From: Candidatus Poribacteria bacterium
Lineage (GTDB): Bacteria; Poribacteria; WGA-4E; WGA-3G
Assembly: GCA_022819945.1 (NCBI GenBank)
Contig: JAJEGI010000031.1
Location: 27,792-91,791 of the forward strand
Direction: 5' to 3'
Length of the DNA: 64,000 bases
The notes beneath the pieces are model-generated. The model made no database searches, was not told the origin of the DNA, and saw only the letters and a list, made by a program, of their open reading frames with translations. Shown here piece after piece: positions 14,745 to 43,148 of this stretch (position 1 is its first letter; each line of letters starts with the position of its first letter). The position numbers were made by a program, and so were the translations under genes.

Positions 14745-15502
14745 ATGAAAGTTCTGTTTTTTATAATACTCGTTATCGGTTTGGTAATACCCGGCACACT
14801 TGGGGCGAAAAATATGGCACTCGAATTAGATGGCAAAACCGCTATCGAAGTCCCAAACAGTGACAGCTTGAATCCCAAAGATGCGATAACGATAGAAGCC
14901 TGGATGAATATGAGTAAGCCTGTCGGTGAATGCCTCGCAAAGGACTGGGGGGCAAAAGGGATTACATCTTTCCAGAGATTGTCCAAAATGGAAACGGATT
15001 ACGGTTTGTCCTCTGGCCCGGCACAAAAATTCTTGATGTCCCTGGATTGAAGCCGAATGAATGGCAGCATGTCGCAGGGGTCTGGGACGGTAAAGAGATG
15101 CGCACCTATATTGATGGCAATGAAAAGGGTGCCCTCGCTTTTGAAGCAAAGGAATTAGCAGCAACTGAGGCTTCGCTGTATATCGGGGTCGGCGATAGCC
15201 AAAATTGGTTCTGCACAGGTTCCATCGATGAAGTCCGTATCTGGGAAGTCGCTCGGACCGAAGAAGAGATTAATGAATTCATGATGAAGGTGCTCAACGG
15301 CGATGAAAACGGCTTGAACGCACACTACACTTTTGATGAAGGCAACGCCAACGATAATACCAAAAACGGAAACGATGGCAAGGGTGGGTTCGGAAAGCCG
15401 AACTATATTGATGTCACCAAAGACCTTGACCTCACGCCACTTGCTGTTGAACCGGGAGATAAACTGACAACAACATGGGCATGGGTGAAAAAGACCCGAT
15501 AA
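14745..15502 (+). pseudogene. LamG (concanavalin-A-like lectin) domain protein, reading frame broken at a G6 run
   Basis: ORFs 14745..15050 and 14930..15502 are the N- and C-terminal halves of one LamG domain (signal peptide, LELDGKTAIEVPNSDSLNP..ITIEAWM / ..WQHVAGVWDGKEMRTYIDG..GSIDEVRIWEVARTEEEI). One extra G in the run at 14947..14952 would join them. Total length is 758 nt, which is 3n+2. Confidence 0.7.
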
Positions 15503-15579
15503 TCGGTTTCGGAATATGTTGCAAGTCCCCCTGATAAGGGGTGTTTTTGCTGGGGTGTTTCTTATAGGGGGTTTCTTGG

Positions 15580-16401
15580 TTGTATCAATTTTCGGATGAG
15601 ATTCTTTCGTTCTATAGACAGACGCAAGAATCTAAAAGACTTACAAAGGATGTCAGGGGACAGATAGAATTTGCGCGTACCCAAGAAATTATCACGCGCT
15701 ATTTACCCGAACCGCCCGCAGTCGTTTTGGACATCGGTGGTGGGTCGGGTCCGTATGCCTGTTGGTTAGCAAAGGCAGGCTATGAGGTCCATCTCGTTGA
15801 TCCAGTAGATTTACATATTGAACAGGCAAAAAAAGCTTCAAATCAACAACCAGAACACCCGATTGCCAGTATATCGCTTGGCGACGCGCGGACACTCCGT
15901 TTTTCGTCAGCCTCTGTGGATGCTGTTCTGCTATTGGGACCGCTCTATCATCTGGTTGATAAAAGTGAACGACTGCTGGCATTGAAAGAAGCACATCGTG
16001 TCTTGCGAAATGGGGGCGTTATGGTTGCTGCCGGTATCTCGCGGTTCGCCTCTCTACTCGATTTTTTCCGCAAGGACCGATTGGGCGACTCTATATACAG
16101 AGGTATTGTTCAAAACGACCTCGAAACGGGTTATCATCGGAACCCAACGGAGAATTTGGAATTTTTTACCGATGCGTATCTTCACCGTCCAGAAGTGTTC
16201 AATTCTGAAGTCGTCGAAGCCGGTTTTCAACATCAGGCGACGCTTGCTGTACAAGGACCGACGTGGCTTTTTGAGTCGGTTGAAAATTATTGGTCAGATC
16301 CTGAACAGCGTGCCGCGGTTTTAGATTTAATTCGGAAAGTCGAAGCAGAACCTTCGATACTCGGCATGAGTGCACATATCCTGGCGATAGGAACGAAATA
16401 A
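15580..16401 (+). CDS. Class I SAM-dependent methyltransferase
   Basis: Motif I VLDIGGGSGPYACWLAKAGYEVHLVD, then VDAVLLLGPLYHL. TTG start, so the exact start is uncertain. Confidence 0.8.
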   Translation: MYQFSDEILSFYRQTQESKRLTKDVRGQIEFARTQEIITRYLPEPPAVVLDIGGGSGPYACWLAKAGYEVHLVDPVDLHIEQAKKASNQQPEHPIASISLGDARTLRFSSASVDAVLLLGPLYHLVDKSERLLALKEAHRVLRNGGVMVAAGISRFASLLDFFRKDRLGDSIYRGIVQNDLETGYHRNPTENLEFFTDAYLHRPEVFNSEVVEAGFQHQATLAVQGPTWLFESVENYWSDPEQRAAVLDLIRKVEAEPSILGMSAHILAIGTK

Positions 16402-16414
16402 AGGGTGACTGATA

Positions 16415-17239
16415 ATGCCTGAAGGTCAAGTGGTTCAAAAGACAGAAACACTCGCCACAGTGGAATCGCTGCAGGCGGATTTTGAGGCACTCGGTATTGA
16501 AAAGGGGATGGTCTTACTCGTCCATTCATCATTGAGCGCTATGGGATGGGTCTGCGGCGGTGCTGTCGCAGTCATCATTGCACTTCAAGAGGTCTTAGGT
16601 AAGACTGGTACACTTGTGGTGCCGACCCATTCAACCGACCTCAGCGATCCGAGTCAGTGGGAAAATCCGCCTGTCCCCGAATCGTGGTGGCAAACAATAC
16701 GCGAGACGATGCCTGCCTACGATCCCGATTTAACGCCTACCCGTTCAATGGGCAAAATTGCTGAAACCTTCCGAAAACAGAGCGGAGTTCTCCGCAGTGC
16801 ACATCCACAGAGTTCGTTTTCTGCCCGCGGTCATCAAGCATCAGACATCATAGACAACCACTCCTTGGCTTACGGCATGGGTGAACACTCACCACTTGCC
16901 AGAATCTACGATTTACACGGTTCTGTCCTGCTCCTCGGTGTCGGGCATTCAAGCAATACGTCCATACACCTCGCAGAATACCGAGCGGACTTCCCAACCA
17001 AACGCATTGTACAGGACGGTGCCCCGATCTCACAGGCGGGTTCAAGGTCATGGACTACCTTTGAAGATATTGACGTAGACGATTCAGATTTTGATCGCCT
17101 TGGCGAAGATTTTCTGCGTTCTGATGCTGGCAAGGTAGTTCAGCGTGGCAAGGTCGGCATCGCAAACTGCCAACTCATGCCACAACGCGCTGTCGTTGAC
17201 TTCGCCATTGATTGGCTTGGGAAAAATAGAGGACAATAA
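16415..17239 (+). CDS. Aminoglycoside N(3)-acetyltransferase family (AAC(3)/Antibiotic_NAT) protein
   Basis: LLVHSSLSAMGWVCGGAVAVIIALQEVLGKTGTLVVPTHS...RSAHPQSSFSARG...SPLARIYDLHGSVLLLGVGHSSNTSIHLAEY matches AAC(3) family blocks. Confidence 0.8.
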   Translation: MPEGQVVQKTETLATVESLQADFEALGIEKGMVLLVHSSLSAMGWVCGGAVAVIIALQEVLGKTGTLVVPTHSTDLSDPSQWENPPVPESWWQTIRETMPAYDPDLTPTRSMGKIAETFRKQSGVLRSAHPQSSFSARGHQASDIIDNHSLAYGMGEHSPLARIYDLHGSVLLLGVGHSSNTSIHLAEYRADFPTKRIVQDGAPISQAGSRSWTTFEDIDVDDSDFDRLGEDFLRSDAGKVVQRGKVGIANCQLMPQRAVVDFAIDWLGKNRGQ

Positions 17240-17374
17240 ATTAGAAGACATAGGTTTAACGGACTACTGACCGCCGATAGCTGTTAAAAAATTGAATTTT
17301 TCATTACGTATGTGTTATATTATAAATATCCAAAGTTGCGACCCAAATAGAAAGAAAAACATAGAAGGCGGTCT

Positions 17375-17806
17375 ATGGAAAAAAAACGGGGATCCTTATT
17401 CACTGTCCGAGACGCGGAAAGTGCAATCATTACCTATACAGTATTAGGACTTCTTTACATTATTGGAATATGTCTCCACGAACTTATCACCGGATGGAAT
17501 GGTATGTTGGAGATGTTAGGAAAGTTAGATGCAATGTCCCCGACGTTTAATCGAACCGCAATTGCGTTTATTATCTTCAAAGAAGGAGCGGATATCATGT
17601 TAAGACGTTTTAACGAGTGGCGGGCTGAACATGCACAAAGCCTTGAAAAAGCCAAAGAACAAGGTATTGAACAAGGTATTGAACAGGGGCGTGCAGAAGC
17701 ATACCAAGCCATTGACGCTTGGAATAAACGCAGACTCGCAGCCGAGGCGAAAGGCATCCCCTTCAATGAACCGCCTCCGTCACAGAACGGAGACGAGCAC
17801 GGATAG
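17375..17806 (+). CDS. Hypothetical membrane protein with EQGIEQGIEQG repeat
   Basis: Hydrophobic N-terminal half and a charged helical C-terminal half. No recognised domain. Confidence 0.4.
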   Translation: MEKKRGSLFTVRDAESAIITYTVLGLLYIIGICLHELITGWNGMLEMLGKLDAMSPTFNRTAIAFIIFKEGADIMLRRFNEWRAEHAQSLEKAKEQGIEQGIEQGRAEAYQAIDAWNKRRLAAEAKGIPFNEPPPSQNGDEHG

Positions 17807-17824
17807 ATACAAGGAGAAAGTCAG

Positions 17825-18868
17825 ATGCAGACATTAAAAGAACTTCGCGTCTCAAATGATGCGATGAATGATCCGGAAGAATTGCGTCACCGGATTTCGG
17901 AAGAGGGGTATCTCTTCTTCAAGCAGCTGCAAGATCCTGACAAACTCTGGGCATTGCGGCGAGAGATGCTAACAACAATGCAAAAAGGTGGTTGGCTCGT
18001 CGCGGGGACCAACCCGATGGACGGCATCGCCGATATTTCTACCCAGTGTACCGAAGGCGATCCCGAATACACGGATGTATACCACGAAGTCTATAAATTA
18101 CAAGCGTTCCACCGTTCCGGACACTGGCACGAAGTCGTGGATATGGTGGAGAAAATTGTCGGTAGAGAGGTGCTACCGCATCCACAGAAGATTGCGCGTC
18201 TCTGGTTCCCTAAGTATACAGCACATACCACACCGATACACCAAGACTTCGTCCACTTCCAAGGGAATTTCCAAACCTATACCTGTTGGGCACCCGTCGG
18301 GGATTGCCCAATTGAGTTGGGAGGCTTGGCAGTCCTGCCCGGTTCACATAAAGTCAATAAGGTTATGGAGCACCACTTTTCGCTCGGTGCTGGCAGTCTC
18401 TGCGTTAATGAGGACGAGTTGTCCGGTGAATGGCATTCCACGAACTACGAAGTTGGCGATACGCTCATTTTCCCTGCTTTGACGATTCATAAGGCACTGC
18501 CGAATTTGACCGAGGATCGGCTGCGCGTGTCGCTCGACAACCGCTATCAAGCTGTCGATGACCCGATCGCTGAGCACATGCTTGAACCGCACCTGAACAT
18601 CTTTAACTCCCTTCAGTGGGAAGATGTCTACCGCAATTGGGAATCCGATGAACTTCAGTATTACTGGAAAGACCATGACCTGACGGTGCTGCCAAGGGAT
18701 TTCAGCTACGGAAACAAAGGGTTTGAGGAAGCATTGGCGTTGGCGAAAGACGGGGATGAACGCGCCATCATACACTTGAATCGGGCGATCAAACGGGACG
18801 CTACAACTGAATTGGCACAGCGAGCCGCAGCAGTTTTGCAGGAAATCAATGTCGGGGCTGCGCAATAA
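17825..18868 (+). CDS. Phytanoyl-CoA dioxygenase (PhyH) family Fe(II)/2-oxoglutarate oxygenase
   Basis: HxD motif in TTPIHQDFVHF and distal His in LTIHKALPN. AAGGAG RBS. Confidence 0.8.
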   Translation: MQTLKELRVSNDAMNDPEELRHRISEEGYLFFKQLQDPDKLWALRREMLTTMQKGGWLVAGTNPMDGIADISTQCTEGDPEYTDVYHEVYKLQAFHRSGHWHEVVDMVEKIVGREVLPHPQKIARLWFPKYTAHTTPIHQDFVHFQGNFQTYTCWAPVGDCPIELGGLAVLPGSHKVNKVMEHHFSLGAGSLCVNEDELSGEWHSTNYEVGDTLIFPALTIHKALPNLTEDRLRVSLDNRYQAVDDPIAEHMLEPHLNIFNSLQWEDVYRNWESDELQYYWKDHDLTVLPRDFSYGNKGFEEALALAKDGDERAIIHLNRAIKRDATTELAQRAAAVLQEINVGAAQ

Positions 18869-32553: not shown

Positions 32554-32948
32554 CTTTTTTCCTCATTTAAGGTTTTGCTTGCTTAAATTGTCGATTAAAA
32601 AAGAAACACCCTCGCCGAGACCGTATTTTGTGACGTTCAGCAATGGGCGTTGTATTATATAACTCAGAAAACGTTTTATTCTTCAATTATTCGCCCACCA
32701 CTGCACGGTACATGGCAATACCAACCAGCACGGCACCAAGACCGATGAACGCGCAGCGGCAATTTTTATGTATCAGTGTGATAGACGAAAAATAAAACAT
32801 CCGAGAGTCCTGTTTAGAATTCATGTATGTTAAGTATTATAATATATCTTAGGGGCGATGTCAAATCTTTCTTCAAGAAAAGCAAATCAGTTCACAACTA
32901 AAGATGAGAATGAAACAACGGCATCTCGGTTTTACAACTTCGGGAAAC

Positions 32949-32977
32949 TTGACGAGACAACGGATGTAGGATATAAT
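32949..32977 (+). promoter_or_regulatory. Candidate sigma-70 promoter (TTGACG, 17-nt spacer, TATAAT)
   Basis: TTGACG at 32949-32954 and TATAAT at 32972-32977, 55 nt upstream of ATG 33032. Confidence 0.55.
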
Positions 32978-33031: not shown

Positions 33032-34216
33032 ATGAAAGATTTGATAGCGCGAAGGCTCATTTTTAGTGTGTTTATGACACTCATGTTAGCATTTAGCATC
33101 CAAAGCATTACCGAGGCACAGGTTCCTGAGATTATCGTTCCCCAAAAGATAGAACCGCAAACGTCGGAATCGTCCCACGAAGATGATACCGTTTCAATAG
33201 CGACACGGTTCGATATCGCCATCAGTGAGATTATGTACGCCACCAACCCCGACAAACTTCCGCAGTGGATTGAACTCCACACCAGAAGTGAACGGAAAAT
33301 CAGCCTTGAAGGATGGGAAGTTACAATTAAGAACCATCCGGAAGATAAGTCCGTACTCGCCACCACGGTCACCTTCACTTTAGGCGCGAAGGTCCTTGAT
33401 AGAAACCAAGTGCTGCTACTCGTGACTGAGCAGGGACCCAACTCAGGCGTTGGCACTGCAAAAGGAGACATCCCAGCAGACCATGCTATCATCCTAAAAG
33501 ACCTTATTGGCGGCACACCCGGCTATCGCCTCTTGAGCCAAACCGCCTTCAAAATCACTCTCAAGGCACCTGTTGGAAAGAAAACCTCTCGCAAGGTGGT
33601 AAGCGACACCGCGGGCAACCTCGAAGCAGTGCCCGAATGGAAACTTCCGCTTATTGAGGGAAACCAACGGAGTTCTATTACCCGAGCGTATGAAGGTATC
33701 AACGCAACGGGAGAGCCGTATGATGGTGATGGCACGGCAGCAGACGGATGGGAACTTACCGGCAAAAAAGGTACCCAGTATATAACACGGCATACCACCT
33801 ACTACGGGCACAGCAGCGATCATGGCACGCCGGGGTATCGTACGCGTGAACCTTTACTTGTGGGTCCCTCACATTTGCTTGTGAAACTCTCGAAGTTTCG
33901 TCCCGAGCGAAAAAAATCCACCGGTGAAGTCGTTATCAAATGGATAACCGAAGCTGAGATGAACAACGCAGGCTTCCACATCAAACGAAGCAGCACCAGA
34001 GACGGTGAGTTCAAGATCATCGCCATGATCCCCGGCGCAGGCACAACCGACAAAAGGCAGATCTATACCTACACCGACAAGACCGCAAAACCGAATGTCG
34101 TCTACTATTACCAGATTGAATGTGTTTCCATAGATGGCACCCGTCAAATACTCCGCAGGACCCACCTCAGAGGGTCTATTGTTCCTAAAAGCCGAGGAGG
34201 TCCCTTGATCTTGTAA
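33032..34216 (+). CDS. Secreted lamin-tail-domain (LTD) protein
   Basis: Signal peptide and ISEIMYATNPDKLPQWIELHTRSERKISLEGWEVTI, which is the LTD signature (NEIMY...EWIEL.N....L.GW). C-terminal beta-sandwich-like block GFHIKRS..YTYTD..YYYQIE. Confidence 0.65.
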   Translation: MKDLIARRLIFSVFMTLMLAFSIQSITEAQVPEIIVPQKIEPQTSESSHEDDTVSIATRFDIAISEIMYATNPDKLPQWIELHTRSERKISLEGWEVTIKNHPEDKSVLATTVTFTLGAKVLDRNQVLLLVTEQGPNSGVGTAKGDIPADHAIILKDLIGGTPGYRLLSQTAFKITLKAPVGKKTSRKVVSDTAGNLEAVPEWKLPLIEGNQRSSITRAYEGINATGEPYDGDGTAADGWELTGKKGTQYITRHTTYYGHSSDHGTPGYRTREPLLVGPSHLLVKLSKFRPERKKSTGEVVIKWITEAEMNNAGFHIKRSSTRDGEFKIIAMIPGAGTTDKRQIYTYTDKTAKPNVVYYYQIECVSIDGTRQILRRTHLRGSIVPKSRGGPLIL

Positions 34217-34329: not shown

Positions 34330-35886
34330 ATGAAAGCGAGCAGAATATCTTTACTCAGTTTGCTAACTATAGTAGTTCTGTTTTCATGCGCGCGATCTCC
34401 CCAACAGGTTGCTGAAGGTCCCGTGGTCGGTTCAACACTTGAAGCAGGAAGCCGTTTTACTGTCGTCCGTGTAGAAGGTAGACATGGGGCTGCGAGCGGA
34501 TTTTTTGTGGAACCTGATAAAATCGCAACGAATATTCACGTCGTCGCGCACCCTGGCCCCATCTTCATAAAATCCGCTGACAAAAAGAAAATCTGGACTG
34601 TAGAAGGTGTCACGGCGTTTGATGTGAAAAATGATCTCGCTATCTTAAAGATTATAGGTGAAGACGGCACCCCCTCTCTGCTTGGCGACAGCGATGCTGT
34701 TACGGTAGGGGACCCGGTTAGTACCACAGGTTACCCGGGTGGAGCGTATAAGGTTACGAAGGGGGTCATCCATCGTGTACGCAATAACGATAAATGGATC
34801 CAGATGGAAATCGCGCTTTCGGGTGGCAGCAGCGGCAGCCCTGTACAAGACAGTAAAGGTCAGATTATAGGGATCGTTTCTGCTGTAGAAGCCCCCTACA
34901 GTTATGTCATCCCGTCAAACGCGCTACGGACATTGATTGCCCAATCGGGACCTGTGGAGCCTTTGACACAATGGCGTAAACGAGCACCTATTCGTGCCTA
35001 TATATACTCCGTTCGCGGGCAACGTAAATACAATGCAAATCACCATGACGATGCCATAGCAGATTTTGATAAAGCCATTAAACTGTACCCGCAGAAGGCG
35101 GATGCCTACTACAATCGAGGGCTTGCGAAATTCACGATTGGAGACCTTGAATTCGCGCAAGGCAATCTGGAGGCAGCTTGGCGGCTATATGAAGCTGGTA
35201 TTGAAGATAGCACACAAGCCATCAAACTTAACCCTGAAAATGCTTATGCATACCACAATCGCGCAGGTGGAAAGTTCCGACTCGGTCAATCTAAATTAAA
35301 TCAAGGAGATACAGCAAAAGGGCAGCGGTATTATCAAGGTGCCATCCAAGATTGGACACACGTTATCGAACTCAATCCAGAGCTTGCGGATCCGTATAAC
35401 AATCGCGGAATAGCAAGGGCATCCCTGGGTGAATCTAAAGCGGAGCACGGAGACATAGCAGGTGCACAGGAATTATATGCGGCAGCGATTGAGGACTGCA
35501 CACAAACTATACGATTAAACCCGATGTATACTGAACCATACATCAATCGTGGATATGCACAATTCCGACTCGGTCAAACGAAAGCGGATCACGGAGACAT
35601 GTCAAGTGCACGGAAATTATATGCAGCCGCCGTTCAAGACTTCACCGAAGCGATACAATTGGACTCAGAGAGTGCCTATGCTTACGGTAATCGAGGTGTT
35701 GCCAAAGCGGCACTTGGTGACGCTGAAGGCGCGATAAAGGATTTTGATGCAGCGATCCGAATTAACCCAGAATACGCTGAAATCTACTACGATCGCGGGC
35801 GTGCCAAAAAGACACTTGGACAACACGAAGCGGCTAAAGCGGATTTTGAGAAGGCGAAAGCACTCAATCCGATGGTCGAAAAATGA
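34330..35886 (+). CDS. Lipoprotein: trypsin-like serine protease module + TPR array (1 module)
   Basis: Lipobox LFSC. GFFVEPDKIATNIHVV (His), KNDLAILKI (Asp), GGSSGSPV (Ser), then TPR units (AYYNRG, AYHNRAG, PYNNRG ...). Confidence 0.8.
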   Translation: MKASRISLLSLLTIVVLFSCARSPQQVAEGPVVGSTLEAGSRFTVVRVEGRHGAASGFFVEPDKIATNIHVVAHPGPIFIKSADKKKIWTVEGVTAFDVKNDLAILKIIGEDGTPSLLGDSDAVTVGDPVSTTGYPGGAYKVTKGVIHRVRNNDKWIQMEIALSGGSSGSPVQDSKGQIIGIVSAVEAPYSYVIPSNALRTLIAQSGPVEPLTQWRKRAPIRAYIYSVRGQRKYNANHHDDAIADFDKAIKLYPQKADAYYNRGLAKFTIGDLEFAQGNLEAAWRLYEAGIEDSTQAIKLNPENAYAYHNRAGGKFRLGQSKLNQGDTAKGQRYYQGAIQDWTHVIELNPELADPYNNRGIARASLGESKAEHGDIAGAQELYAAAIEDCTQTIRLNPMYTEPYINRGYAQFRLGQTKADHGDMSSARKLYAAAVQDFTEAIQLDSESAYAYGNRGVAKAALGDAEGAIKDFDAAIRINPEYAEIYYDRGRAKKTLGQHEAAKADFEKAKALNPMVEK

Positions 35887-35918
35887 ATACAGAGAATAAC
35901 ATTTAGAGGTATCCATTC

Positions 35919-38072
35919 ATGAAACAGCACAACAAATGTTTACTGGTCTTACTGGCATTAGGGATCCTGCTCTCCTGTGCGCGGGCACCCCGGCAACTGG
36001 TTTTCCAACACCCGGTCGGACTGATAGAATCCGTAAACGATTCTATCGTTTGGATTGAGAGTGAAACCGAGTCGGGTACGGGCTTCTTTGTGGCCCCTGA
36101 CAAGATTGTGACGAATACTCACCTCGTCGCATTCCCCGGCCCCATTGTCGCGAAATCCCCCGACAAGGAGACAACTTGGAAGATAGAAGGTGTTGTTGGG
36201 TTTGATGCGAAAAACAGCCTCGTTCTCCTAAAAGTTGTCGGTGAAGGCACCCTGCTGCCCTTAGCGGATAGTGATGCAGTTCAAGGCGGTGAAGCTGTCT
36301 CTATCGTGGGGTATCCCAACGGCATATACAAAGTCACAAAGGCAAATATACTATATAACATTCGGAATAGCAATGGGTGGCTCCGAATGAGAGCCACAAC
36401 TGCTCAAGAAAGCAGTGGCGGTCCCGTACTAAACTCGGAGAAACGCGTTATCGGCGTTACCATGCGGTACGGCAACGATTCCTTCGGTTATGCGATTCCT
36501 TCAAACACGCTCAAAGGGCTGCTTGCCCGGTCTATGCCTGTGGAGCCTTTAGAAGCGTGGCAGCAGCGGAAACCTGTCCGCGCCGAGGCACACTACAGTT
36601 TCGGTGAACGGAAATTCGCTGTCAAAGATTATGCCGGCGCGATCCTTGACTTTGATAAAGCGATTGAACTCAATCCTACGTATCACCGGGCCTACTACGA
36701 GCGCGGAAAAGTTCAAAGTCACCTTGGGGACATCGAATCCGCGCGGGGTGATGTAGAGAAAGCACAGCGGCTGTACCACCAAGGCATCACTAACTTCGAT
36801 AAATACCTCCAATTGAAGAACAATCCAGAGGAGGCTAATAGTCAGACAGCGGACTCGAAAGTCACAAAATCTAGAGCGTCTATAGTACTCGTAATGGGTT
36901 GGAATGGAACCTCAAGCACTTTTTTCGGTGGTAGCGGTTTCTTTGTGGACGAAGACAAGATCGCAACGAATATCCACAATGTTGCCTGGTCCGGGCCTGT
37001 TTTTGCCAAACTCAGTGACAAAAAGACCATCTGTGCAATTGAGGGTGTCACGGCGTATGATGTGGAAAACGATCTCGTCGTCCTAAAAATCGCGGGTGAA
37101 GGCACGCCGCTGCGCTTAGCGGATAGCAATACGGTTCAAAGCGGTGAACGAATCACTGCTATGGGATACCCGAACATAAAATACAAAGTCGCGCAAGGAA
37201 CTATACAGAATATTCAGAATACCGATAAATGGCTCCGCGTGAAAGTGGAACTTGGTGGTGGTAGCAGTGGGAGTCCTGTGCTAAATAGGAGTGGACAGGT
37301 TATAGGGATTAATGCTTGGGCCAGTGAGCGTTACCGGTGCGCTATCCCCTCAAATGTGTTGAAGGTGTTACTCGCCGAGACGAAACCAACGGAGCCTTTG
37401 GCAGCGTGGCGGCAGCGAGACCCTATCCGTGCCTACGCCTACCACGTTCAGGGAAAATTTAAATACGATGCAGGGCACTATCAGGAGGCGATCGCCGATT
37501 TTGATAAAGCCGTTCAGCTAAACCCTGAGACGCTCTATACCTACCACAAACGTGGGGAAGCAAAAGCTGCTCTTGGCGAACACGAAGCGGCGATAGCCGA
37601 TTTTGATAAGGCGATCCAACTTGATCCAGAATTTGCTGACTCCTACGCGCGTAAGCGTGCGGTAAAAGCTCTTAAGGAAAAAGAAGCCGCAAAAAAAGCA
37701 CGCAACCCGCGGAACCTCCCTGATTACATCACGCGTGCAAAGCAGCGGTTCAGCCTTGGCGAATTTCAAGCCGCTCGCGGAAATGCGGAAAAGTCACAAG
37801 AACTCTTGACGGCGGCAATTGAGGACTGGACACACGTCATTAAGTCCACTCCGGAGGATGCCGAAGCATATAGCAGTCGGGGCCTCGCAAAACTGATTCT
37901 CGGTGACGCGGAAGGCGCAATCACCGACTTTGATAAAGCCATTGAGATAAACCCAGAGTCTGCAGAAGCCTACTACAATCGCGGGCGATCAAAAGAGGCA
38001 CTTGGGCAACACGAAGCAGCAAAAGCAGATTTTCAAAAAGCTAAAGAACTAAATCCAAATGTTGGAAAGTAA
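35919..38072 (+). CDS. Lipoprotein: two trypsin-like protease + TPR modules
   Basis: Lipobox LLSC. Module 1 has TNTHLV / KNSLVLLK / ESSGGPV, module 2 has TNIHNV / ENDLVVLK / GGSSGSPV, each followed by TPRs. Confidence 0.8.
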   Translation: MKQHNKCLLVLLALGILLSCARAPRQLVFQHPVGLIESVNDSIVWIESETESGTGFFVAPDKIVTNTHLVAFPGPIVAKSPDKETTWKIEGVVGFDAKNSLVLLKVVGEGTLLPLADSDAVQGGEAVSIVGYPNGIYKVTKANILYNIRNSNGWLRMRATTAQESSGGPVLNSEKRVIGVTMRYGNDSFGYAIPSNTLKGLLARSMPVEPLEAWQQRKPVRAEAHYSFGERKFAVKDYAGAILDFDKAIELNPTYHRAYYERGKVQSHLGDIESARGDVEKAQRLYHQGITNFDKYLQLKNNPEEANSQTADSKVTKSRASIVLVMGWNGTSSTFFGGSGFFVDEDKIATNIHNVAWSGPVFAKLSDKKTICAIEGVTAYDVENDLVVLKIAGEGTPLRLADSNTVQSGERITAMGYPNIKYKVAQGTIQNIQNTDKWLRVKVELGGGSSGSPVLNRSGQVIGINAWASERYRCAIPSNVLKVLLAETKPTEPLAAWRQRDPIRAYAYHVQGKFKYDAGHYQEAIADFDKAVQLNPETLYTYHKRGEAKAALGEHEAAIADFDKAIQLDPEFADSYARKRAVKALKEKEAAKKARNPRNLPDYITRAKQRFSLGEFQAARGNAEKSQELLTAAIEDWTHVIKSTPEDAEAYSSRGLAKLILGDAEGAITDFDKAIEINPESAEAYYNRGRSKEALGQHEAAKADFQKAKELNPNVGK

Positions 38073-38102
38073 CTGTGAATAATAAGTGGGAGGCAACGAT
38101 TG

Positions 38103-41100
38103 ATGAAACAAAACATCAAATTTTTATTGGTTTTACTCACATTAGGTCTTTTTATCTCTTGTGCGCAGGCACCGCAGCAGCTGATTTCTGAGAAACCCAT
38201 CGCGCCGCCTATGGACTTAACGTCAGAAAAAATAAAAGATGCCATCGTCATGATTGAGAGTGAGAACGGATCTGGGACAGGGTTCTTCGTTGCGCCAGAT
38301 AAGATTGCAACGAACAGCCATATCGTTGCTCACACGGGGCCTATTTTTGTAAAGTCTCCTGACACGGAGAAAAATTGGGCGATAGAAGGTGTTATTGCGT
38401 ATGATGCCCAAAACAGCCTTGTCCTTCTAAAAATCGCCGGTGAAGGCACGCCGTTACCCTTAGGAAAAATCGAAGCAGTTCAAATCGGTCCGTCTGTCTC
38501 TATCCCAGGCTATCGCGATGGCGAATTCAAAGTCGTGGAAGGCAAGATACAAAGCATCGGAAAAAATAATAAATGGCTCCGGATAAAAGCAACGAAAGAG
38601 ACTGCCGGGAGTCCCGTGCTTAACAACAACGGACAAGTCATCGGGGTTATTGTGCCGTATGGTAGTTACGCGGTGCCTTCCAGCGCGCTTGCGGCATTGC
38701 TTGACTCGTCTATGCCAATAACACCTTTGGCGGAGTGGCAGCAGCGGGAACAGGTCCGTGCTGCGGCATACTACAGTTTAGGTGAAGAAAAATTAGGTGC
38801 CGAAGATTATACTGGCGCGATCATTCACTTTAATAAAGCGATTGAATTCAACCCTGAGTATGCTCGTGCCTACTATGAACGCGGGAGAGCACAAGCTTAT
38901 TTTGGTAACTATGACAGTGCGATAGCCTCCTGTACGCAAGCTATTAAAATAGATCCAGATGCGCCAGATGCTTACTTCCTCCGTGGAAGTGTGAAGGCTC
39001 GACTTGGTGACTATGCTGCTGCGATCATTGAACTTGATAAAGCCATTGAACTTGATACCCAGCATGCCGATGCTTACAGTAATCGAGGTGGTATAAAATA
39101 CAGATTGGGAGAGTCCGAATCTGCACGCGGGAATGCTGAGAAAGCACAGCGTTTATATGAAGCAGCGATAGCCGATTGCGATAAAGCGATCCAGATTGAT
39201 CCAGAGTATGCCCATACCTATAATTTTCGCGGGATGGCGAAATTGAAGGTTGATGATTATGAAGGTGCGGTACTTGATTTAAATACAGCCATTGAGATTG
39301 ACCCAGAGCAGGCTGATTACTACAACAATCGCGGATTGGCAAAATTCAAGCTTGGCGAATCCGAGAACGCACGCGAGAATACTAAAGAAGCACAGCGTTT
39401 GTATGAAGCAGCGATTGAAGATTTTACGCAAGCCATCAAGGTAAATCCAGAGGATGTTGATTTCTATCGTAACCGTGGTGTCGTGAAGTTGGCTTTTGGT
39501 GAATTAGAATTGGCCCGCGGCACTCCTGAGAAAACAGAAGCGTTATATGAAGCAGCGATTGAAGATTTTACGCAAGCCATCAAGGTAAATCCAGAGGATG
39601 ACTCAGCCTACAACCATCGAGGATTAATGAAGTTCAGGCTTGGTAAACCCGAGGCTGCTCGCGGAGATACTGAGAAAGCAATGGACCTCTACAAATCAGC
39701 GATCGTTGACTATACCCAAGCCATCAAGTCCAATGCAGATAATAACTTAGCCTATGACAATCGTGGGCTTGCGAAATCCGCCCTTGGTGACCTGGAATCC
39801 ACCCGTGGAGATGCTGAGAAAGCAATGGATCTCTACGAATCAGCTATCGTTGATTACACCCAAGCCACCCAGATTAACCCAAAGTATGCGGATGCCCATA
39901 GCAATCGGGCAATAGTGAAGTGTAAACTTGGAGACATTGAATCCACACGTGGTGAGGTAGAGAACGCACAAAGGTTGTATCACGAGGGCATCACGGATTA
40001 CGATAAATCCGTCCAACTGGGCACACCGGAGAATATTGATACCCTGACAGCGGACCGGGTACCCGAAAAAGCCAGAGATTCAACTGTGCACGTGATGGGT
40101 TGGGTTGGAGCTTCAAGCAGCTTTTATGGCGGTAGCGGTTTTTTTGTGGATACGGACAAAATTGCGACGAACATCCATGTCGTTGCCCAATCCGGTCCCG
40201 TTTTCGTCAAACTCAAGGATAAAAAGAAAATCTGTGCAGTTGAGGAAGTCGCTGCTTTTGATGCGGAAAATGATCTCGTCATCCTAAAGATTGCGGGTGA
40301 AGGCATACCGCTCTCCCTTGGTGATAGTGAAACGATTCAAGAGGGTGAACCTGTTGTTGTTGTCGGATATCCTAACAAAAAATACAAAGTCATCAAAGGA
40401 GAGATACATAGTGCTCCCAATAGTGGTGAATGGCTCCGGCTGAATGCTAATATTGGTAGTGGTGGTAGCGGCAGTCCTACGCTAAATAGTAGTGGTGGAC
40501 AAGTCGTTGGGGTTCATGCTGCTGGAAATGAGCATTACGGTTACGCGATCCCCTCAAATGTACTTAAGGCGTTACTTGCGCAGTCGAAACCAATGGAACC
40601 TTTGATGCAGTGGCACAAGCGAGAACTTATCCGTGCGTATGCCTTATTTGTTCAAGGACAGATGAAATATAATGCTGAGCATTACCATGAAGCGATAGTC
40701 GATTTTGATAAAGCCATAAATATAAACGCTCAATTTTTTTATCCTTACCACAAACGCGGAGACGCTCAATTTGCCCTTGGCAACTATGAAGCAGCGATAG
40801 CCGATTATGATAAAGCCAGAGAAATAAATGAGGGAATTTTCAATATTTACTTCGATCTCGGATTAGCGAAGTCCAAACTTGGGGATTACAAAGCGGCGAT
40901 AACTGATTATGATAAAGCTATTGAGATTGATCCAGAACATACTAAGGCATATAGTAATCGGAGCTGGACGAAGTTTAGACTTGGCGAATCCGAGACTGCC
41001 CGCGGGAATGCTGAGGAAGCGGAGCGTTTGTATGAAGCAGCGATAGAAGACGCTACGCAAGCGATCCAGATTAACCCAAAACATGCGGATGCATATAGTA

Positions 41101-41831
41101 ATCGAGGCACAGCAAAGTTTGGTCTTGGCGACCTTGAAGGCGCAATACTTGATTATAACAAAGCCATCCAAATCAATCCAGAGCATGCCAATGCTTATAG
41201 TAATCGGGGCTGGGTAAAGTTTAGACTTGGCAATCCTAAAGGGGGGGTACTTGATTTCAATAAAGCGATCCAGATTAACCCAGAGCATGCTGGTGCCTAC
41301 AAAAATCGGGCAAAAGCGAAGTTCAGACTTGGGGAATCCAAATTAGCACAGCGAGATATAGCAGGGACGCTTCAACTCTACGAATCGGTGGTTGAAGACT
41401 GTTCTCAGGCGATACAATTGATTCCAAGGGATGCTAATGCCTATAGCGATCGAGGAGGGACAAAGTTAGCAATCGGTGAACTGGAGTCTACCCGCGGGAA
41501 TACCGAAAAAGCCCAAAACTCGTATGAGGCTGCAATTGAAGACTTGACTCAAGCTGTCAAGATTACGCCGAAGTTTGCTTATGCTTACAAAAATCTTGGG
41601 AAGGCGAAATTCAGACTTGGGGAATCCGAGTCCTCTCACGGAAATGCAGAGAAAGCAGAAAAGTTATATCAGGCATCTATTGCGGACATGACCCAAGCCA
41701 TTAAGTTAGTTCCTGAGTATGCCGAAGCCTACTATCTGCGTGCGCAAGCAAAGGAGGCACTTGGACAAAAGGAAGCCGCAAAAGCAGACTTTGAGAAGGC
41801 TAAGGAACTAGATCCAGACGTCGGACAGTAA
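38103..41831 (+). CDS. Lipoprotein: two trypsin-like protease modules each with long TPR arrays
   Basis: Lipobox FISC. Module 1 has TNSHIV / QNSLVLLK / ETAGSPV, module 2 has TNIHVV / ENDLVILK / GGSGSPT. More than 20 TPR-like units. GGGAGG RBS before ATG 38103. Confidence 0.8.
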   Translation: MKQNIKFLLVLLTLGLFISCAQAPQQLISEKPIAPPMDLTSEKIKDAIVMIESENGSGTGFFVAPDKIATNSHIVAHTGPIFVKSPDTEKNWAIEGVIAYDAQNSLVLLKIAGEGTPLPLGKIEAVQIGPSVSIPGYRDGEFKVVEGKIQSIGKNNKWLRIKATKETAGSPVLNNNGQVIGVIVPYGSYAVPSSALAALLDSSMPITPLAEWQQREQVRAAAYYSLGEEKLGAEDYTGAIIHFNKAIEFNPEYARAYYERGRAQAYFGNYDSAIASCTQAIKIDPDAPDAYFLRGSVKARLGDYAAAIIELDKAIELDTQHADAYSNRGGIKYRLGESESARGNAEKAQRLYEAAIADCDKAIQIDPEYAHTYNFRGMAKLKVDDYEGAVLDLNTAIEIDPEQADYYNNRGLAKFKLGESENARENTKEAQRLYEAAIEDFTQAIKVNPEDVDFYRNRGVVKLAFGELELARGTPEKTEALYEAAIEDFTQAIKVNPEDDSAYNHRGLMKFRLGKPEAARGDTEKAMDLYKSAIVDYTQAIKSNADNNLAYDNRGLAKSALGDLESTRGDAEKAMDLYESAIVDYTQATQINPKYADAHSNRAIVKCKLGDIESTRGEVENAQRLYHEGITDYDKSVQLGTPENIDTLTADRVPEKARDSTVHVMGWVGASSSFYGGSGFFVDTDKIATNIHVVAQSGPVFVKLKDKKKICAVEEVAAFDAENDLVILKIAGEGIPLSLGDSETIQEGEPVVVVGYPNKKYKVIKGEIHSAPNSGEWLRLNANIGSGGSGSPTLNSSGGQVVGVHAAGNEHYGYAIPSNVLKALLAQSKPMEPLMQWHKRELIRAYALFVQGQMKYNAEHYHEAIVDFDKAININAQFFYPYHKRGDAQFALGNYEAAIADYDKAREINEGIFNIYFDLGLAKSKLGDYKAAITDYDKAIEIDPEHTKAYSNRSWTKFRLGESETARGNAEEAERLYEAAIEDATQAIQINPKHADAYSNRGTAKFGLGDLEGAILDYNKAIQINPEHANAYSNRGWVKFRLGNPKGGVLDFNKAIQINPEHAGAYKNRAKAKFRLGESKLAQRDIAGTLQLYESVVEDCSQAIQLIPRDANAYSDRGGTKLAIGELESTRGNTEKAQNSYEAAIEDLTQAVKITPKFAYAYKNLGKAKFRLGESESSHGNAEKAEKLYQASIADMTQAIKLVPEYAEAYYLRAQAKEALGQKEAAKADFEKAKELDPDVGQ

Positions 41832-42008
41832 CGCTGGACAATAAAATTAGAGGTATCCATTATGGCTTTGTATCCAAACGCCCAATGGTACAAGGAAAAT
41901 AGGCTTTTGGAGTAAAGGTGGGTAAAATGGAACGTCTTGCATACGGAAACACCGGACTCGAAATCTCCCGGTTTCTACCTTGAGGTGGGCCCTCCCAATA
42001 AGGTAATC

Positions 42009-43148
42009 TTATTCGTTAAGACTCTGTGGGTCCATATCGAGGGGATTATCTGCCTCAAATACACGCTGTGCCGCAGCGGGTAGTTTTCCTTGGGCCGCGG
42101 CCTGTTCCACCCAATGGGTCGGAATGCCATTTGTCCATTTGGCTGGATCTGCTTCTGAGTCGGGCGTTCGATACGCCATAAGCAGTCCCCATCGGGTCGG
42201 CATCCCTGGCTTCCGATAGCCAACATAATGCGGCATGTGATGGACAAACGAAACCATGCTTCCGGGCGGTAGTGAGAGGTGTACGATTTCCAACGGCTTC
42301 CCTGTGAAAGCGTGAATTTTGCCTTTCAGCCAGCCCGCTTTCATGGCAGCGTCATCATCGGGTCGTTCCGTGCTCCATTTGTACGGAATCCGATAAAGAT
42401 GTGCACCGGGGATAATCGCAAGTTCGCCGCCATCCTCAATAGTTGCACCTTCTGGATAGCACAGCGTCCGAATACACTGCCGTTGTAGAAAATCAGGGGT
42501 AAAGGCGTGTCCAGTCCCAATCGGGTCCTCAACTTCGTACTGTCCCTCCCGATACTGGTGTGCATGCCACCGGCGCCCTTTTGAACCCGGTGCCCGGTTG
42601 AGCATGAAGCAGTGATCGAGTATAAATCGGTCTCCGAAAAGTTTCCTGAAGAGTGCCACCATCTGCGGATGAGCAGACGTCACATCCATTATAAAGTCGT
42701 CGTATCCTGCAGGAAAGTATTCCGGCATGACACCTTGTGACTTGAACCCATGTGTGACCAACGCGTTGCCCGGTCCGAACAGCCCCTGAGTATGCATATA
42801 TTGACGCAACTCAGCGGTTCTGAGGAAACTGGGCATTTGCTCTGAACCACCGCAGCACGCCGACAAAAACGCTGGCGCAATTTGTTCTGGCAAAGGCTGC
42901 GGAAACCCCCGTGCCTCAAAGTCGATAGCATTCCACTCCGTATCCATGAGGATCGCATCGTTCATCTGTTGTAACTTCTGTAAGCTGGCTGTCCACTGCT
43001 TACGGGCAGCATCCGTTAGTATCCCTTCCCACACCCAATATCCATCGTGCTCAAACGCAGTCCGGTCAAACGCTTCAAGGACTTCCAACTTCAACAGGTT
43101 GTCCACACGATTTTCCGGGGACTCGTTGTGTGTCGATAAAGTATCCAT
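42009..43148 (-). CDS. PhyH-like Fe(II)/2-oxoglutarate oxygenase superfamily protein (divergent)
   Basis: Overall PhyH-like layout (ILDHCFMLNRAPGSKGRRWHAHQY ... GSMVSFVHHMPHYV), but the usual WHxD reads WHAH. Call is tentative. Confidence 0.5.
   Translation of the reverse strand: MDTLSTHNESPENRVDNLLKLEVLEAFDRTAFEHDGYWVWEGILTDAARKQWTASLQKLQQMNDAILMDTEWNAIDFEARGFPQPLPEQIAPAFLSACCGGSEQMPSFLRTAELRQYMHTQGLFGPGNALVTHGFKSQGVMPEYFPAGYDDFIMDVTSAHPQMVALFRKLFGDRFILDHCFMLNRAPGSKGRRWHAHQYREGQYEVEDPIGTGHAFTPDFLQRQCIRTLCYPEGATIEDGGELAIIPGAHLYRIPYKWSTERPDDDAAMKAGWLKGKIHAFTGKPLEIVHLSLPPGSMVSFVHHMPHYVGYRKPGMPTRWGLLMAYRTPDSEADPAKWTNGIPTHWVEQAAAQGKLPAAAQRVFEADNPLDMDPQSLNE

Follow-up and report, generated by a model that had tools for sequence, protein, structure and literature searches.

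The locus described here raises the question of why two of three adjacent lipoprotein genes should each carry a protease-like module lacking catalytic residues in front of a second module that retains them. It lies in a 64,000-nt stretch of DNA from an uncultured sponge symbiont, Candidatus Poribacteria (GCA_022819945.1, contig JAJEGI010000031.1, positions 27,792 to 91,791), hereafter called the window, and all positions are counted from its first letter. The initial annotation had described three co-directional genes for lipoproteins combining protease and tetratricopeptide repeat (TPR) regions, with five protease modules in all, and the ORFs, lipoboxes, protease modules and TPR arrays were all as claimed. 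The array is arranged as follows:

34330..35886, + strand: gene 1, lipoprotein of 518 aa with one intact S1C module and a TPR array
35887..35918, + strand: inter-paralog junction of 32 nt with an AGAGGT ribosome-binding site
35919..38072, + strand: gene 2, lipoprotein of 717 aa with pseudoprotease, short TPR1, live protease and TPR2
38103..41831, + strand: gene 3, lipoprotein of 1242 aa with pseudoprotease, long TPR1, live protease and long TPR2
39394..39664, + strand: 144-bp tandem DNA repeat in gene 3, encoding two 48-residue TPR units

The gaps between the three ORFs are 32 and 30 nt, and the sequence of the junction between genes 1 and 2 was found again between paralogs of other genomes and 3' of gene 3. 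Gene 3 has another possible start, a TTG at 38100. In a second, independent assembly from ENA, the scaffold of this DNA matches the window, which is without any N, at 100% identity save for a 100-N gap at window positions 39457–39545. Because this gap sits inside the tandem repeat of gene 3, the repeat count there is assembly-dependent; an assembly artefact was otherwise rejected, the protease modules being unaffected.

Profile searches with Pfam detected five stretches of Trypsin_2 (PF13365), a single one in gene 1 and a pair in each of genes 2 and 3, and every match exceeded the gathering score (77.4 bits for gene 1, 135.7 for the two stretches of gene 2 and 122.4 for the two stretches of gene 3; cut-off 27.6). 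The same searches detected many TPR families (e.g. TPR_11 at 112, 118 and 352 bits). Pairwise identity among the five modules is 44–61%. Triad columns were set by aligning the five-module profile to HtrA1, HtrA2 and RsgI9. Every motif on which the original triad calls had been based was present as written and fell on a catalytic column: Asp is replaced by Ser in both N-terminal modules and the nucleophile Ser by Ala in that of gene 3. A family-wide HMM alignment returned the same columns, and this concordance ruled out a chance or misaligned triad. The modules, with N and C denoting the first and second module of a gene, are:

34417..34998, + strand: G1 module, residues 30–223; H70, D102, G166 and S168 intact
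36018..36584, + strand: G2N degenerate module, residues 34–222; H68, S100 (Asp position), E164 (Gly193 position), S166 kept
36843..37433, + strand: G2C intact module, residues 309–505; H353, D385, G448, S450
38214..38762, + strand: G3N degenerate module, residues 38–220; H73, S105 (Asp position), E166 (Gly193 position), A168 (Ser position)
40044..40637, + strand: G3C intact module, residues 648–845; H692, D724, G787, S789

The His-Asp-Ser triad and the oxyanion-hole Gly193 are thus complete in G1, G2C and G3C and incomplete in G2N and G3N, which are S1C members by fold and homology only. The replacement of the chymotrypsin Gly193 equivalent by Glu in G2N (E164) and G3N (E166) is a third lesion, absent from the initial annotation. 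Across the family this position is Gly in 99% of the 126 intact modules and Glu or Lys in the degenerate ones. Structural work has established that Gly193 is required for the active conformation of the L1 loop, that any residue other than glycine makes this conformation strongly unfavourable, and that Glu193 disables MamO. The His is retained in at least 95% of the degenerate modules and the nucleophile Ser in those of the HSS and HNS types, which leaves room for residual or different chemistry.

The three proteins share one layout, comprising a signal peptide with Cys at residue 20, a flexible tether, a chymotrypsin-fold module, a conserved P-x-E-P-L-x-x-W-x-x-R junction and a TPR array. The lipoboxes (LFSC, LLSC and FISC in genes 1, 2 and 3, respectively) are each preceded by a hydrophobic stretch and satisfy the pattern [LVI][ASTVIFL][GAS]C, so that lipidation is predicted for all three. 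Dissection of the repeats gave TPR units of 34 aa and a 48-aa variant; the array of gene 1 consists of one 34-aa, four 48-aa and two 34-aa units, and TPR1 and TPR2 of gene 3 contain about 10 units each. No PDZ domain was detected in the three proteins by a Pfam scan at E ≤ 0.01. In the full-length AF2 model of the gene 2 protein (pLDDT 83.1, pTM 0.68), residues 3–19 form a helix and residues 19–36 a disordered tether, and paired helices extend across the TPR regions. G3N is modelled as an intact HtrA fold (pLDDT 89.3), with RsgI9, HtrA1, MarP and Deg5 as top structural matches and MucD matched as well. A whole-protein fold search of the PDB returned single-domain matches only, no chain covering more than one domain.

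Comparison with known systems sets the family apart. With HtrA, DegP and DegS (MEROPS S1C; PF13365) the array modules share the chymotrypsin fold, the His-Asp-Ser triad, the G-x-S-G-x-P loop and an extracytoplasmic location (predicted for the array proteins), and their sequence or fold matches reach HtrA1, HtrA2, DegP, DegQ, MucD, Deg5 and MarP. However, in canonical HtrA proteins the protease is followed by PDZ, whereas in the array proteins it is followed by TPR, and canonical members are either soluble or held by a transmembrane helix, not by the lipid anchor predicted here from the lipobox. Scores with the NCBIfam model for canonical HtrA/DegP (TIGR02037) were 66.6, 100.9 and 79.5 bits for genes 1, 2 and 3, against a cut-off of 416.2. 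Membership of the DegP, DegS, DegQ, MarP, HhoA, MamE, NlpI, Tgl and PilW families was likewise rejected, all scores lying under the NCBIfam curated cut-offs (by a wide margin for DegS, DegQ, MarP and HhoA; 37–43 bits against 800 for MamE; 53.7, 52.6 and 127.1 bits against 250 for NlpI, NF008391, reflecting generic TPR similarity only). A borderline match of gene 3 to MamA (201.2 bits against 200) reflects summed TPR similarity, and this assignment was also rejected.

The closest parallels to the pairing of dead and live domains are found in two other systems. Plant and fungal DEG7 (and yeast Nma111), like genes 2 and 3, combines an active and a degenerate HtrA domain in one polypeptide, the degenerate domain being kept without catalysis, in DEG7 for trimerisation. 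DEG7, however, is eukaryotic, has four PDZ domains and no TPR or lipid anchor, and its second domain is the degenerate one, whereas the array proteins have the dead module in front and the live one at the end; DEG7/Nma111 is of independent origin, an analogue and not the same family. In MamO, a pseudo-HtrA of magnetotactic bacteria, the L1 loop is degenerate, with Glu193 and a replaced nucleophile, and the protein enhances the activity of its live HtrA partner. It has Gly193 to Glu in common with G2N and G3N, and its nucleophile replacement recurs in G3N (A168), whereas G2N keeps Ser166; by alignment, the MamO-type degeneration of L1 is therefore full in G3N and half in G2N. MamO and MamE are separate proteins, whereas the dead and live domains of the array are fused and predicted to be lipid-anchored; moreover, MamO binds metal via a di-His motif, and neither MamO nor MamE has a TPR fusion, the TPR protein MamA being separate. 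The protease domain of MamO also carries a fused TauE-like transporter domain, and a Pfam scan found no such domain in the array proteins. MamO, too, is an analogue of the array pseudoproteases and not a member of their family. The earlier statement that no characterised system has this architecture thus holds for the combination of S1C and TPR, but not for a chain with degenerate and active HtrA domains (DEG7) or for a pseudo-HtrA helper (MamO).

Two further comparisons concern the separate parts. The S1C-like domain of RsgI9 from Clostridium thermocellum (PDB 7sjy), the best PDB match (sequence E = 4e-21, Foldseek rank 1), is a protease-like domain serving ligand binding, with Glu at 193 and Thr as nucleophile in its loop K-E-S-T-G-G-P. 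However, this domain belongs to an anti-sigma factor that also contains an NTF2 domain; RsgI9 is a cellulose binder from a Gram-positive organism and has neither TPR nor a paired live protease. BepA combines an M48 metalloprotease and TPR in one protein, and NlpI-Prc consists of a TPR lipoprotein adaptor and an S41 protease; in both, the TPR recruits or positions envelope proteins of the cell itself for the protease. These are M48 and S41 enzymes, not S1C, without a pseudoprotease, and NlpI is not joined to Prc in one chain; the array proteins do not belong to either family.

A survey of homologous loci showed that the dead-then-live order recurs, with 70 of the 71 related loci named Candidatus Poribacteria. 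Among 132 complete multi-module relatives (108 with a lipobox), 117 were dead-live, 12 live-live, 2 dead-dead-live and 1 dead-live-live; the last module was dead in none of them, and the reverse order was never seen. With more than 100 homologous proteins showing it, this pattern lies well outside what chance would produce. Orthologs of gene 1 (511–524 aa, HDS) stand first in the array at about 25 Poribacteria loci, those of gene 2 are 713–725 aa long with 78–91% identity, and the nearest ortholog of gene 3 is at 15228–18302 of locus L002. Database annotation of the relatives is 'tetratricopeptide repeat protein' only; we found no description of the family in the literature on Poribacteria proteases or TPR proteins or on HtrA-TPR pseudoproteases, and no mention of its proteins in the Poribacteria transcriptome and metaproteome papers checked. 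On the sequences collected, the family is restricted to the phylum Poribacteria and previously uncharacterised.

In a tree of the modules, N-modules group together and C-modules group together, which rules out a separate internal duplication within genes 2 and 3. Forty of the 41 degenerate modules fell in a single clade without an intact member, with modest support (bootstrap 24/40, 60%), and the HSS sub-clade, which includes G2N, was recovered in 40/40 replicates. The segment preceding the C-module of gene 3 aligns to the mature N-terminus of a single-module lipoprotein, P0011 (score 46 versus 18 ± 3.4 for shuffles). Given this resemblance and the N and C clades, the two-module gene most likely originated once, by fusion of neighbouring tandem paralogs, with whole-gene duplications following later. 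The 'whole-module duplication' proposed in the initial annotation therefore holds only in a loose sense.

We consider it probable that the array encodes a Poribacteria-restricted set of lipid-anchored extracytoplasmic S1C proteases, in which TPR stands in for PDZ and the dead N-module is paired with the live one in a non-catalytic role. In this model, i) the lipobox would anchor the proteins at the membrane, facing outside the cytoplasm, ii) the TPR arrays would take the role of PDZ in binding partner proteins, iii) the live modules would cleave the proteins so recruited, whether from the envelope or host-derived, and iv) the dead N-module might, like the degenerate domain of DEG7, offer a surface for assembly or oligomerisation, or it might activate the live module or, as in MamO/MamE, hold substrates. 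A single fusion of paralogs, followed by repeated whole-gene duplication and loss, would have given rise to arrays of 1–5 genes between conserved flanks. A more specific version, in which the dead N-domain acts within the molecule as a MamO-like partner, capturing or presenting substrates for the live protease or switching it on allosterically, and the array faces the host, its fast-evolving TPRs recognising sponge proteins, is doubtful.

An alternative that is possible, if not likely, is a host-directed system of 'eukaryote-like proteins', with TPRs that bind to proteins of sponges or corals and a live protease that processes host factors, for example in evasion of phagocytosis. All related loci come from sponge- or coral-associated Poribacteria MAGs, and TPR proteins are the most abundant class of eukaryote-like repeats in Poribacteria and have been proposed in the literature to mediate host interaction. 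Such a role would also fit the variation of the arrays, which range from 1 to 5 genes between flanks that are 85–98% identical, and their rate of evolution: dN/dS is 0.03–0.08 for the flanking genes and, at 0.3–0.6, 5–10 times higher for the modules, and divergence is greatest in the TPR regions (TPR1 of gene 3 is 58–67% identical). However, the lipobox would hold the proteins on the bacterial membrane, scans with Pfam and NCBIfam found no secretion-system signal, dN/dS is less than 1 in every region of the array, and BepA and NlpI-Prc, the TPR-guided proteases mentioned above, act on the cell's own envelope. This alternative concerns the targets and is compatible with the pseudoprotease reading.

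It is improbable that the N-modules, or at least those of the HSS (G2N) and HNS types, are still hydrolases with a Ser-His dyad or an unconventional triad and an altered specificity or a low, regulated activity. Every HSS and HNS module examined retains both His and the nucleophile Ser, and the Ser at the Asp position, invariant throughout the HSS clade, could reflect function beyond descent. Nevertheless, the Gly193 position is occupied by Glu, as in the disabled MamO, in 100% of the HSS and 75% of the HNS modules, and in the sister G3-type N-modules, which belong to the same clade, N, D or A may stand in for the nucleophile and S, G, K or N may occupy the Asp position, a freedom which argues that catalysis was already dispensable in the common ancestor.

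The reading of the N-modules as non-catalytic partners is consistent with the selection acting on them. The dN/dS ratios are 0.49–0.62 for G2N versus 0.44–0.70 for G2C and 0.29–0.32 for G3N versus 0.28–0.45 for G3C, with 0.13–0.24 for the G1 module, and the amino acid identity of N-modules equals or exceeds that of C-modules (86–94% versus 73–85%). As judged from these ratios, the dead modules are under purifying selection, as the live ones are, and the constraint on the array modules is real but loose. That the degenerate modules are functionless relics of duplication, decaying neutrally and kept as spacers only, is very improbable in spite of the wide variation of the G3-type triad positions and the fairly high dN/dS of G2N (0.5–0.6), since these ratios are below 1 and no higher than in live modules, the N-modules are at least as conserved as the C-modules, every module class keeps about 30 core positions together with the module-TPR junction, no frameshifts or truncations occur across more than 100 family proteins, and the predicted fold is confident; neutral decay was rejected on these grounds. 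The initial proposal of a dead and an apparently live protease paired on a TPR scaffold is thereby strengthened.

These proteins would represent a third way, beside DEG7 and MamO/MamE, for an HtrA-type domain to be retired from catalysis yet kept under selection, the new features being the fusion of the dead domain upstream of a live copy and the replacement of PDZ by TPR arrays. Glu replaces Gly193 in MamO, in RsgI9 and in the array family alike, which points to a shared path towards an L1 loop that is stably 'off'. Genes formerly counted merely as 'TPR eukaryote-like proteins' would be lipid-anchored proteases in a fast-evolving island of variable copy number, and this identity and setting make them concrete candidates for a role in remodelling the envelope or interacting with the host, in a phylum that is abundant yet uncultured. 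If the host-facing, MamO-like version were true, the array would be a Poribacteria-specific symbiosis factor and a natural fused pseudoenzyme-enzyme pair on a repeat scaffold. Since the domains are small and soluble, these predictions can be tested with recombinant protein.

Three elements adjoin the array:

32949..32977, + strand: candidate sigma-70-type promoter (TTGACG-17-TATAAT, 11/12, consensus match only), upstream of the LTD-like gene
33032..34216, + strand: gene for an LTD-like secreted protein of 394 aa, directly upstream of and co-directional with the array
41832..42008, no strand: conserved spacer of 177 nt, closing the array

The candidate promoter may drive an operon of the LTD-like gene and genes 1 to 3; the 113-nt gap between the LTD-like gene and gene 1 contains no comparable promoter and no convincing terminator. 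The suggestion that the locus sits in a cell-surface cluster fared less well, as the LTD match (32.2 bits) is below the Pfam cut-off of 34.3, the gene (61–82% identity, dN/dS 0.25–0.40) is present in most syntenic loci but missing from several, and the rest of the flanking genes serve metabolism or transport. NCBIfam and Pfam scans gave nothing useful for the LTD-like gene or for the 379-aa and 513-aa neighbours. The 177-nt spacer has no Rfam match and showed no covariation; it begins with the inter-paralog junction sequence and is 94–98% identical in nucleotide sequence across six other genomes.

Each of the three tandem ORFs, here G1 to G3, has the coordinates, shared direction, lipobox and number of protease modules given in the initial annotation:

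34330-35886, + strand, G1, ORF of 518 aa
35919-38072, + strand, G2, ORF of 717 aa
38103-41831, + strand, G3, ORF of 1242 aa

The deduced proteins start with a hydrophobic signal sequence leading to LFSC, LLSC and FISC, respectively, with the Cys at residue 20. Pfam searches detected one Trypsin_2 (PF13365) domain in G1 and a pair in each of G2 and G3, all well over the gathering score, along with numerous TPR family matches; no PDZ domain was found in G1 to G3, and no further family members were found inside the window. The five protease modules are mutually 44–61% identical, with 57% identity between the N-terminal modules of G2 and G3 (G2N and G3N) and 61% between the C-terminal ones (G2C and G3C). 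An independent scaffold of this DNA in ENA (sample ERZ23491202; KELL22-1 scaffold_663) is 100% identical except for one 100-N gap, which corresponds to window 39457-39545, lies within a 144-bp tandem repeat that codes for two of the TPR units in G3, and causes gene callers to split G3 into two products. Since the gap is confined to this repeat, the protease modules are assembly-independent and the TPR count is uncertain only in the gap stretch. Two repeat lengths occur in the TPR arrays, the canonical one of 34 residues and a 48-residue variant in which 14 residues (consensus ES-x-SARGN-x-EKAQ-x-L) are inserted between helices A and B (examples at 35104-35679, 39072-39215, 39360-39893, 40947-41090 and 41295-41726). 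In the AlphaFold2 model of G2, the 48-residue units are hairpins, each made of a pair of long helices ~20 residues in length (H256-275/H279-300 and H600-619/H623-643).

To read the catalytic positions, the five-module profile was aligned with HMMER to HtrA2, HtrA1 and RsgI9. TN-x-H, N-D-L-x-x-L-K and G-x-S-G-x-P coincide with the columns of the catalytic His, Asp and Ser, so that the triad assigned earlier from motifs is correct.

Residues at the catalytic columns (chymotrypsin numbering)
G1 module: His57 = H70, Asp102 = D102, Gly193 = G166, Ser195 = S168
G2C module: His57 = H353, Asp102 = D385, Gly193 = G448, Ser195 = S450
G3C module: His57 = H692, Asp102 = D724, Gly193 = G787, Ser195 = S789
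G2N module: His57 = H68, Asp102 = S100, Gly193 = E164, Ser195 = S166
G3N module: His57 = H73, Asp102 = S105, Gly193 = E166, Ser195 = A168

We found that the oxyanion-hole Gly (chymotrypsin Gly193) is replaced by Glu in both G2N and G3N, a change overlooked in the initial annotation. According to the MamO crystal-structure paper, a non-glycine residue at 193 strongly disfavours the active L1 conformation, and Glu193 blocks oxyanion-hole formation in the pseudoprotease MamO. The replacement weighs most for G2N, since this module keeps its His and Ser.

Searching 1.84 billion representative proteins with a profile yielded 187 representatives at E ≤ 1e-30, many with two, three or four matched stretches, and scanning a single genome for each GTDB species yielded 71 loci, 70 named Candidatus Poribacteria and 1 named "uncultured bacterium". 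Their names in public records are limited to "tetratricopeptide repeat protein", "hypothetical protein" and "trypsin-like peptidase domain-containing protein". The catalytic columns were read in all fetched proteins, which include 132 complete multi-module proteins (108 with a lipobox). With modules scored as dead (catalytic residues lost) or live (His, Asp and Ser kept), their orders from the N-terminus are:

dead, live: 117 of 132
live, live: 12 of 132
dead, dead, live: 2 of 132
dead, live, live: 1 of 132

In none of the 132, whatever the order, was the last module dead. Intact modules from the loci (n = 126) conserve Asp in 99%, Gly193 in 99% and Ser in 100%. The degenerate modules retain His in at least 95% and, named by the residues at their triad columns, comprise three sub-types:

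HSS: G2 orthologs of about 720 aa
H-[S/G/K/N]-[N/D/A]: G3 type, 950–1260 aa
HNS: proteins of 800–1060 aa at other loci

Position 193 is Glu in 100% of the HSS type and 75% of the HNS type, and Lys, Glu or Arg in the G3N type.

Loss of catalytic residues has left the predicted fold in place. The AlphaFold2 model of G3N (43-sequence alignment) has a mean pLDDT of 89.3 and a pTM of 0.85, its best PDB matches being the RsgI9 S1C-like domain, HtrA1, Rv3671c/MarP, Deg5 and MucD. In the full-length G2 model (pLDDT 83.1, pTM 0.68), a signal helix (3–19) and a disordered tether (19–36) precede two beta-barrel modules, and the TPR segments are helical.

dN/dS against the closest orthologs (Nei-Gojobori)
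G1 protease: 0.13–0.24
G2N: 0.49–0.62
G2C: 0.44–0.70
G3N: 0.29–0.32
G3C: 0.28–0.45

As the N-modules are on a par with the C-modules in dN/dS, and equal or higher in amino-acid identity (86–94% vs 73–85%), the dead modules are as constrained as the live ones. Every array gene is looser than the flanking ADH, DUF5916 and 513-aa genes (dN/dS 0.03–0.08). The G2 protease modules (window 36018-37433, compared with loci L007, L009, L010, L020 and L026) have an unusually low dS of 0.10–0.27; dS is 0.31–0.45 in the second TPR region of G2 and up to 1.1 in flanking genes of the same genomes. The low values suggest recent inter-lineage exchange, gene conversion or synonymous constraint.

A neighbour-joining tree built from 166 modules places 40 of the 41 degenerate ones in one clade without an intact member (bootstrap 24/40), within which the HSS sub-clade is supported in 40/40; the C-modules fall in separate clades. 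G2 and G3 have homologous junctions ahead of the C-module, and the one in G3 can be aligned with the mature N-terminus of a lipoprotein that has a single module (score 46, vs 18 ± 3.4 for shuffles). The simplest history consistent with these sequences is that i) a single fusion of adjacent paralogs, with loss of a stop codon and of the second signal peptide, gave the two-module gene, ii) its first module then degenerated, and iii) whole-gene duplications followed. For the live-live proteins (~825 aa; L009, L019 and L020), a separate fusion would be simplest. The array is flanked by genes whose proteins are 85–98% identical (ADH, GNAT and DUF5916 upstream; 379-aa, 513-aa and ABC genes downstream), between which its size ranges from one gene (L017, L018, L021–L023) to five (L002). 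Syntenic loci (L002, L009, L010, L013, L020 and L026) hold 1–5 paralogs at the same site across Poribacteria, including ~825-aa live-live fusions and ~347-aa single-module genes that are both absent from the window; presence of the LTD-like gene upstream of G1 varies among them.

Each protein combines a lipoprotein signal, a tether, an S1C module and a TPR array, and the dead-then-live order is conserved family-wide. G1 to G3 would be membrane-tethered extracytoplasmic proteases that bind partners through TPR arrays rather than PDZ domains, with the dead N-module probably acting as a non-catalytic partner of the live one. Such a role is plausible by analogy with three precedents: DEG7, in which a degenerate protease domain of the same chain, there second in order, mediates trimerisation; MamO, a pseudo-HtrA protein promoting proteolysis that depends on MamE; and RsgI9, which uses an S1C-like domain as its ligand-binding sensor and has the same Glu193 signature as the N-modules. 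In cellulose-binding RsgI9 (PDB 7sjy) the loop reads K-E-S-T-G-G-P, with Glu at 193 and Thr in place of the nucleophile, and an L1-loop lesion of the kind common to RsgI9, MamO and the N-modules may be a way in which pseudo-HtrA domains arise repeatedly. The targets could be envelope proteins of the bacterium itself, a role to which the lipid anchor and the analogues BepA and NlpI-Prc point. Host proteins are the other candidate targets; a host-facing role is favoured by the fast evolution of the array, its variation in copy number and its setting in a sponge symbiont.

S1C proteases, TPRs and lipoproteins are known as parts, and pseudo-HtrA domains have precedents. The novelty lies in how they are combined, in the conserved dead-first order, in a distribution restricted to Poribacteria and in the variable tandem array. 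No solved structure spanning more than one domain of G2 was found, no curated NCBIfam family scored above cut-off save a borderline, repeat-driven MamA score for G3, and the literature searched held no description of these Poribacteria proteins. The result is a clean, testable finding at the family level, drawn wholly from sequence in an uncultured phylum.

Features flanking the array genes are:

32864-32836, - strand, candidate promoter, 12/12 consensus
32949-32977, + strand, candidate promoter, 11/12 consensus, upstream of the LTD-like gene
41832-42008, 177-nt spacer between the convergent ends of G3 and the 379-aa gene
42009-43148, - strand, 379-aa gene without Pfam or NCBIfam match

The two candidate promoters, of near-consensus sigma-70 type, are divergent in the DUF5916/LTD intergenic region (window 32836-32977). 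Short spacers (32 nt between G1 and G2, 30 nt between G2 and G3) with ribosome-binding sites (AGAGGT and GGGAGG), the candidate promoter ahead of the LTD-like gene, close to consensus, and the lack of convincing terminators suggest that the LTD-like gene and G1 to G3 constitute one putative operon. The 177-nt spacer shows 94–98% nucleotide identity in six other Poribacteria genomes, far exceeding the conservation of synonymous sites in nearby genes (dS 0.4–1.1). It starts with a ~25-nt junction and ribosome-binding site also found between array paralogs, contains a 17-codon ORF that is frameshifted in L006, and has no Rfam match; a stable fold was predicted, without covariation. The adjacent 379-aa gene has a dS of just 0.07–0.09 against L003, L010 and L020, compared with 0.54–0.83 for the neighbouring 513-aa gene in the same genomes, which could reflect a sweep specific to this gene, recombination or constraint at the nucleotide level.
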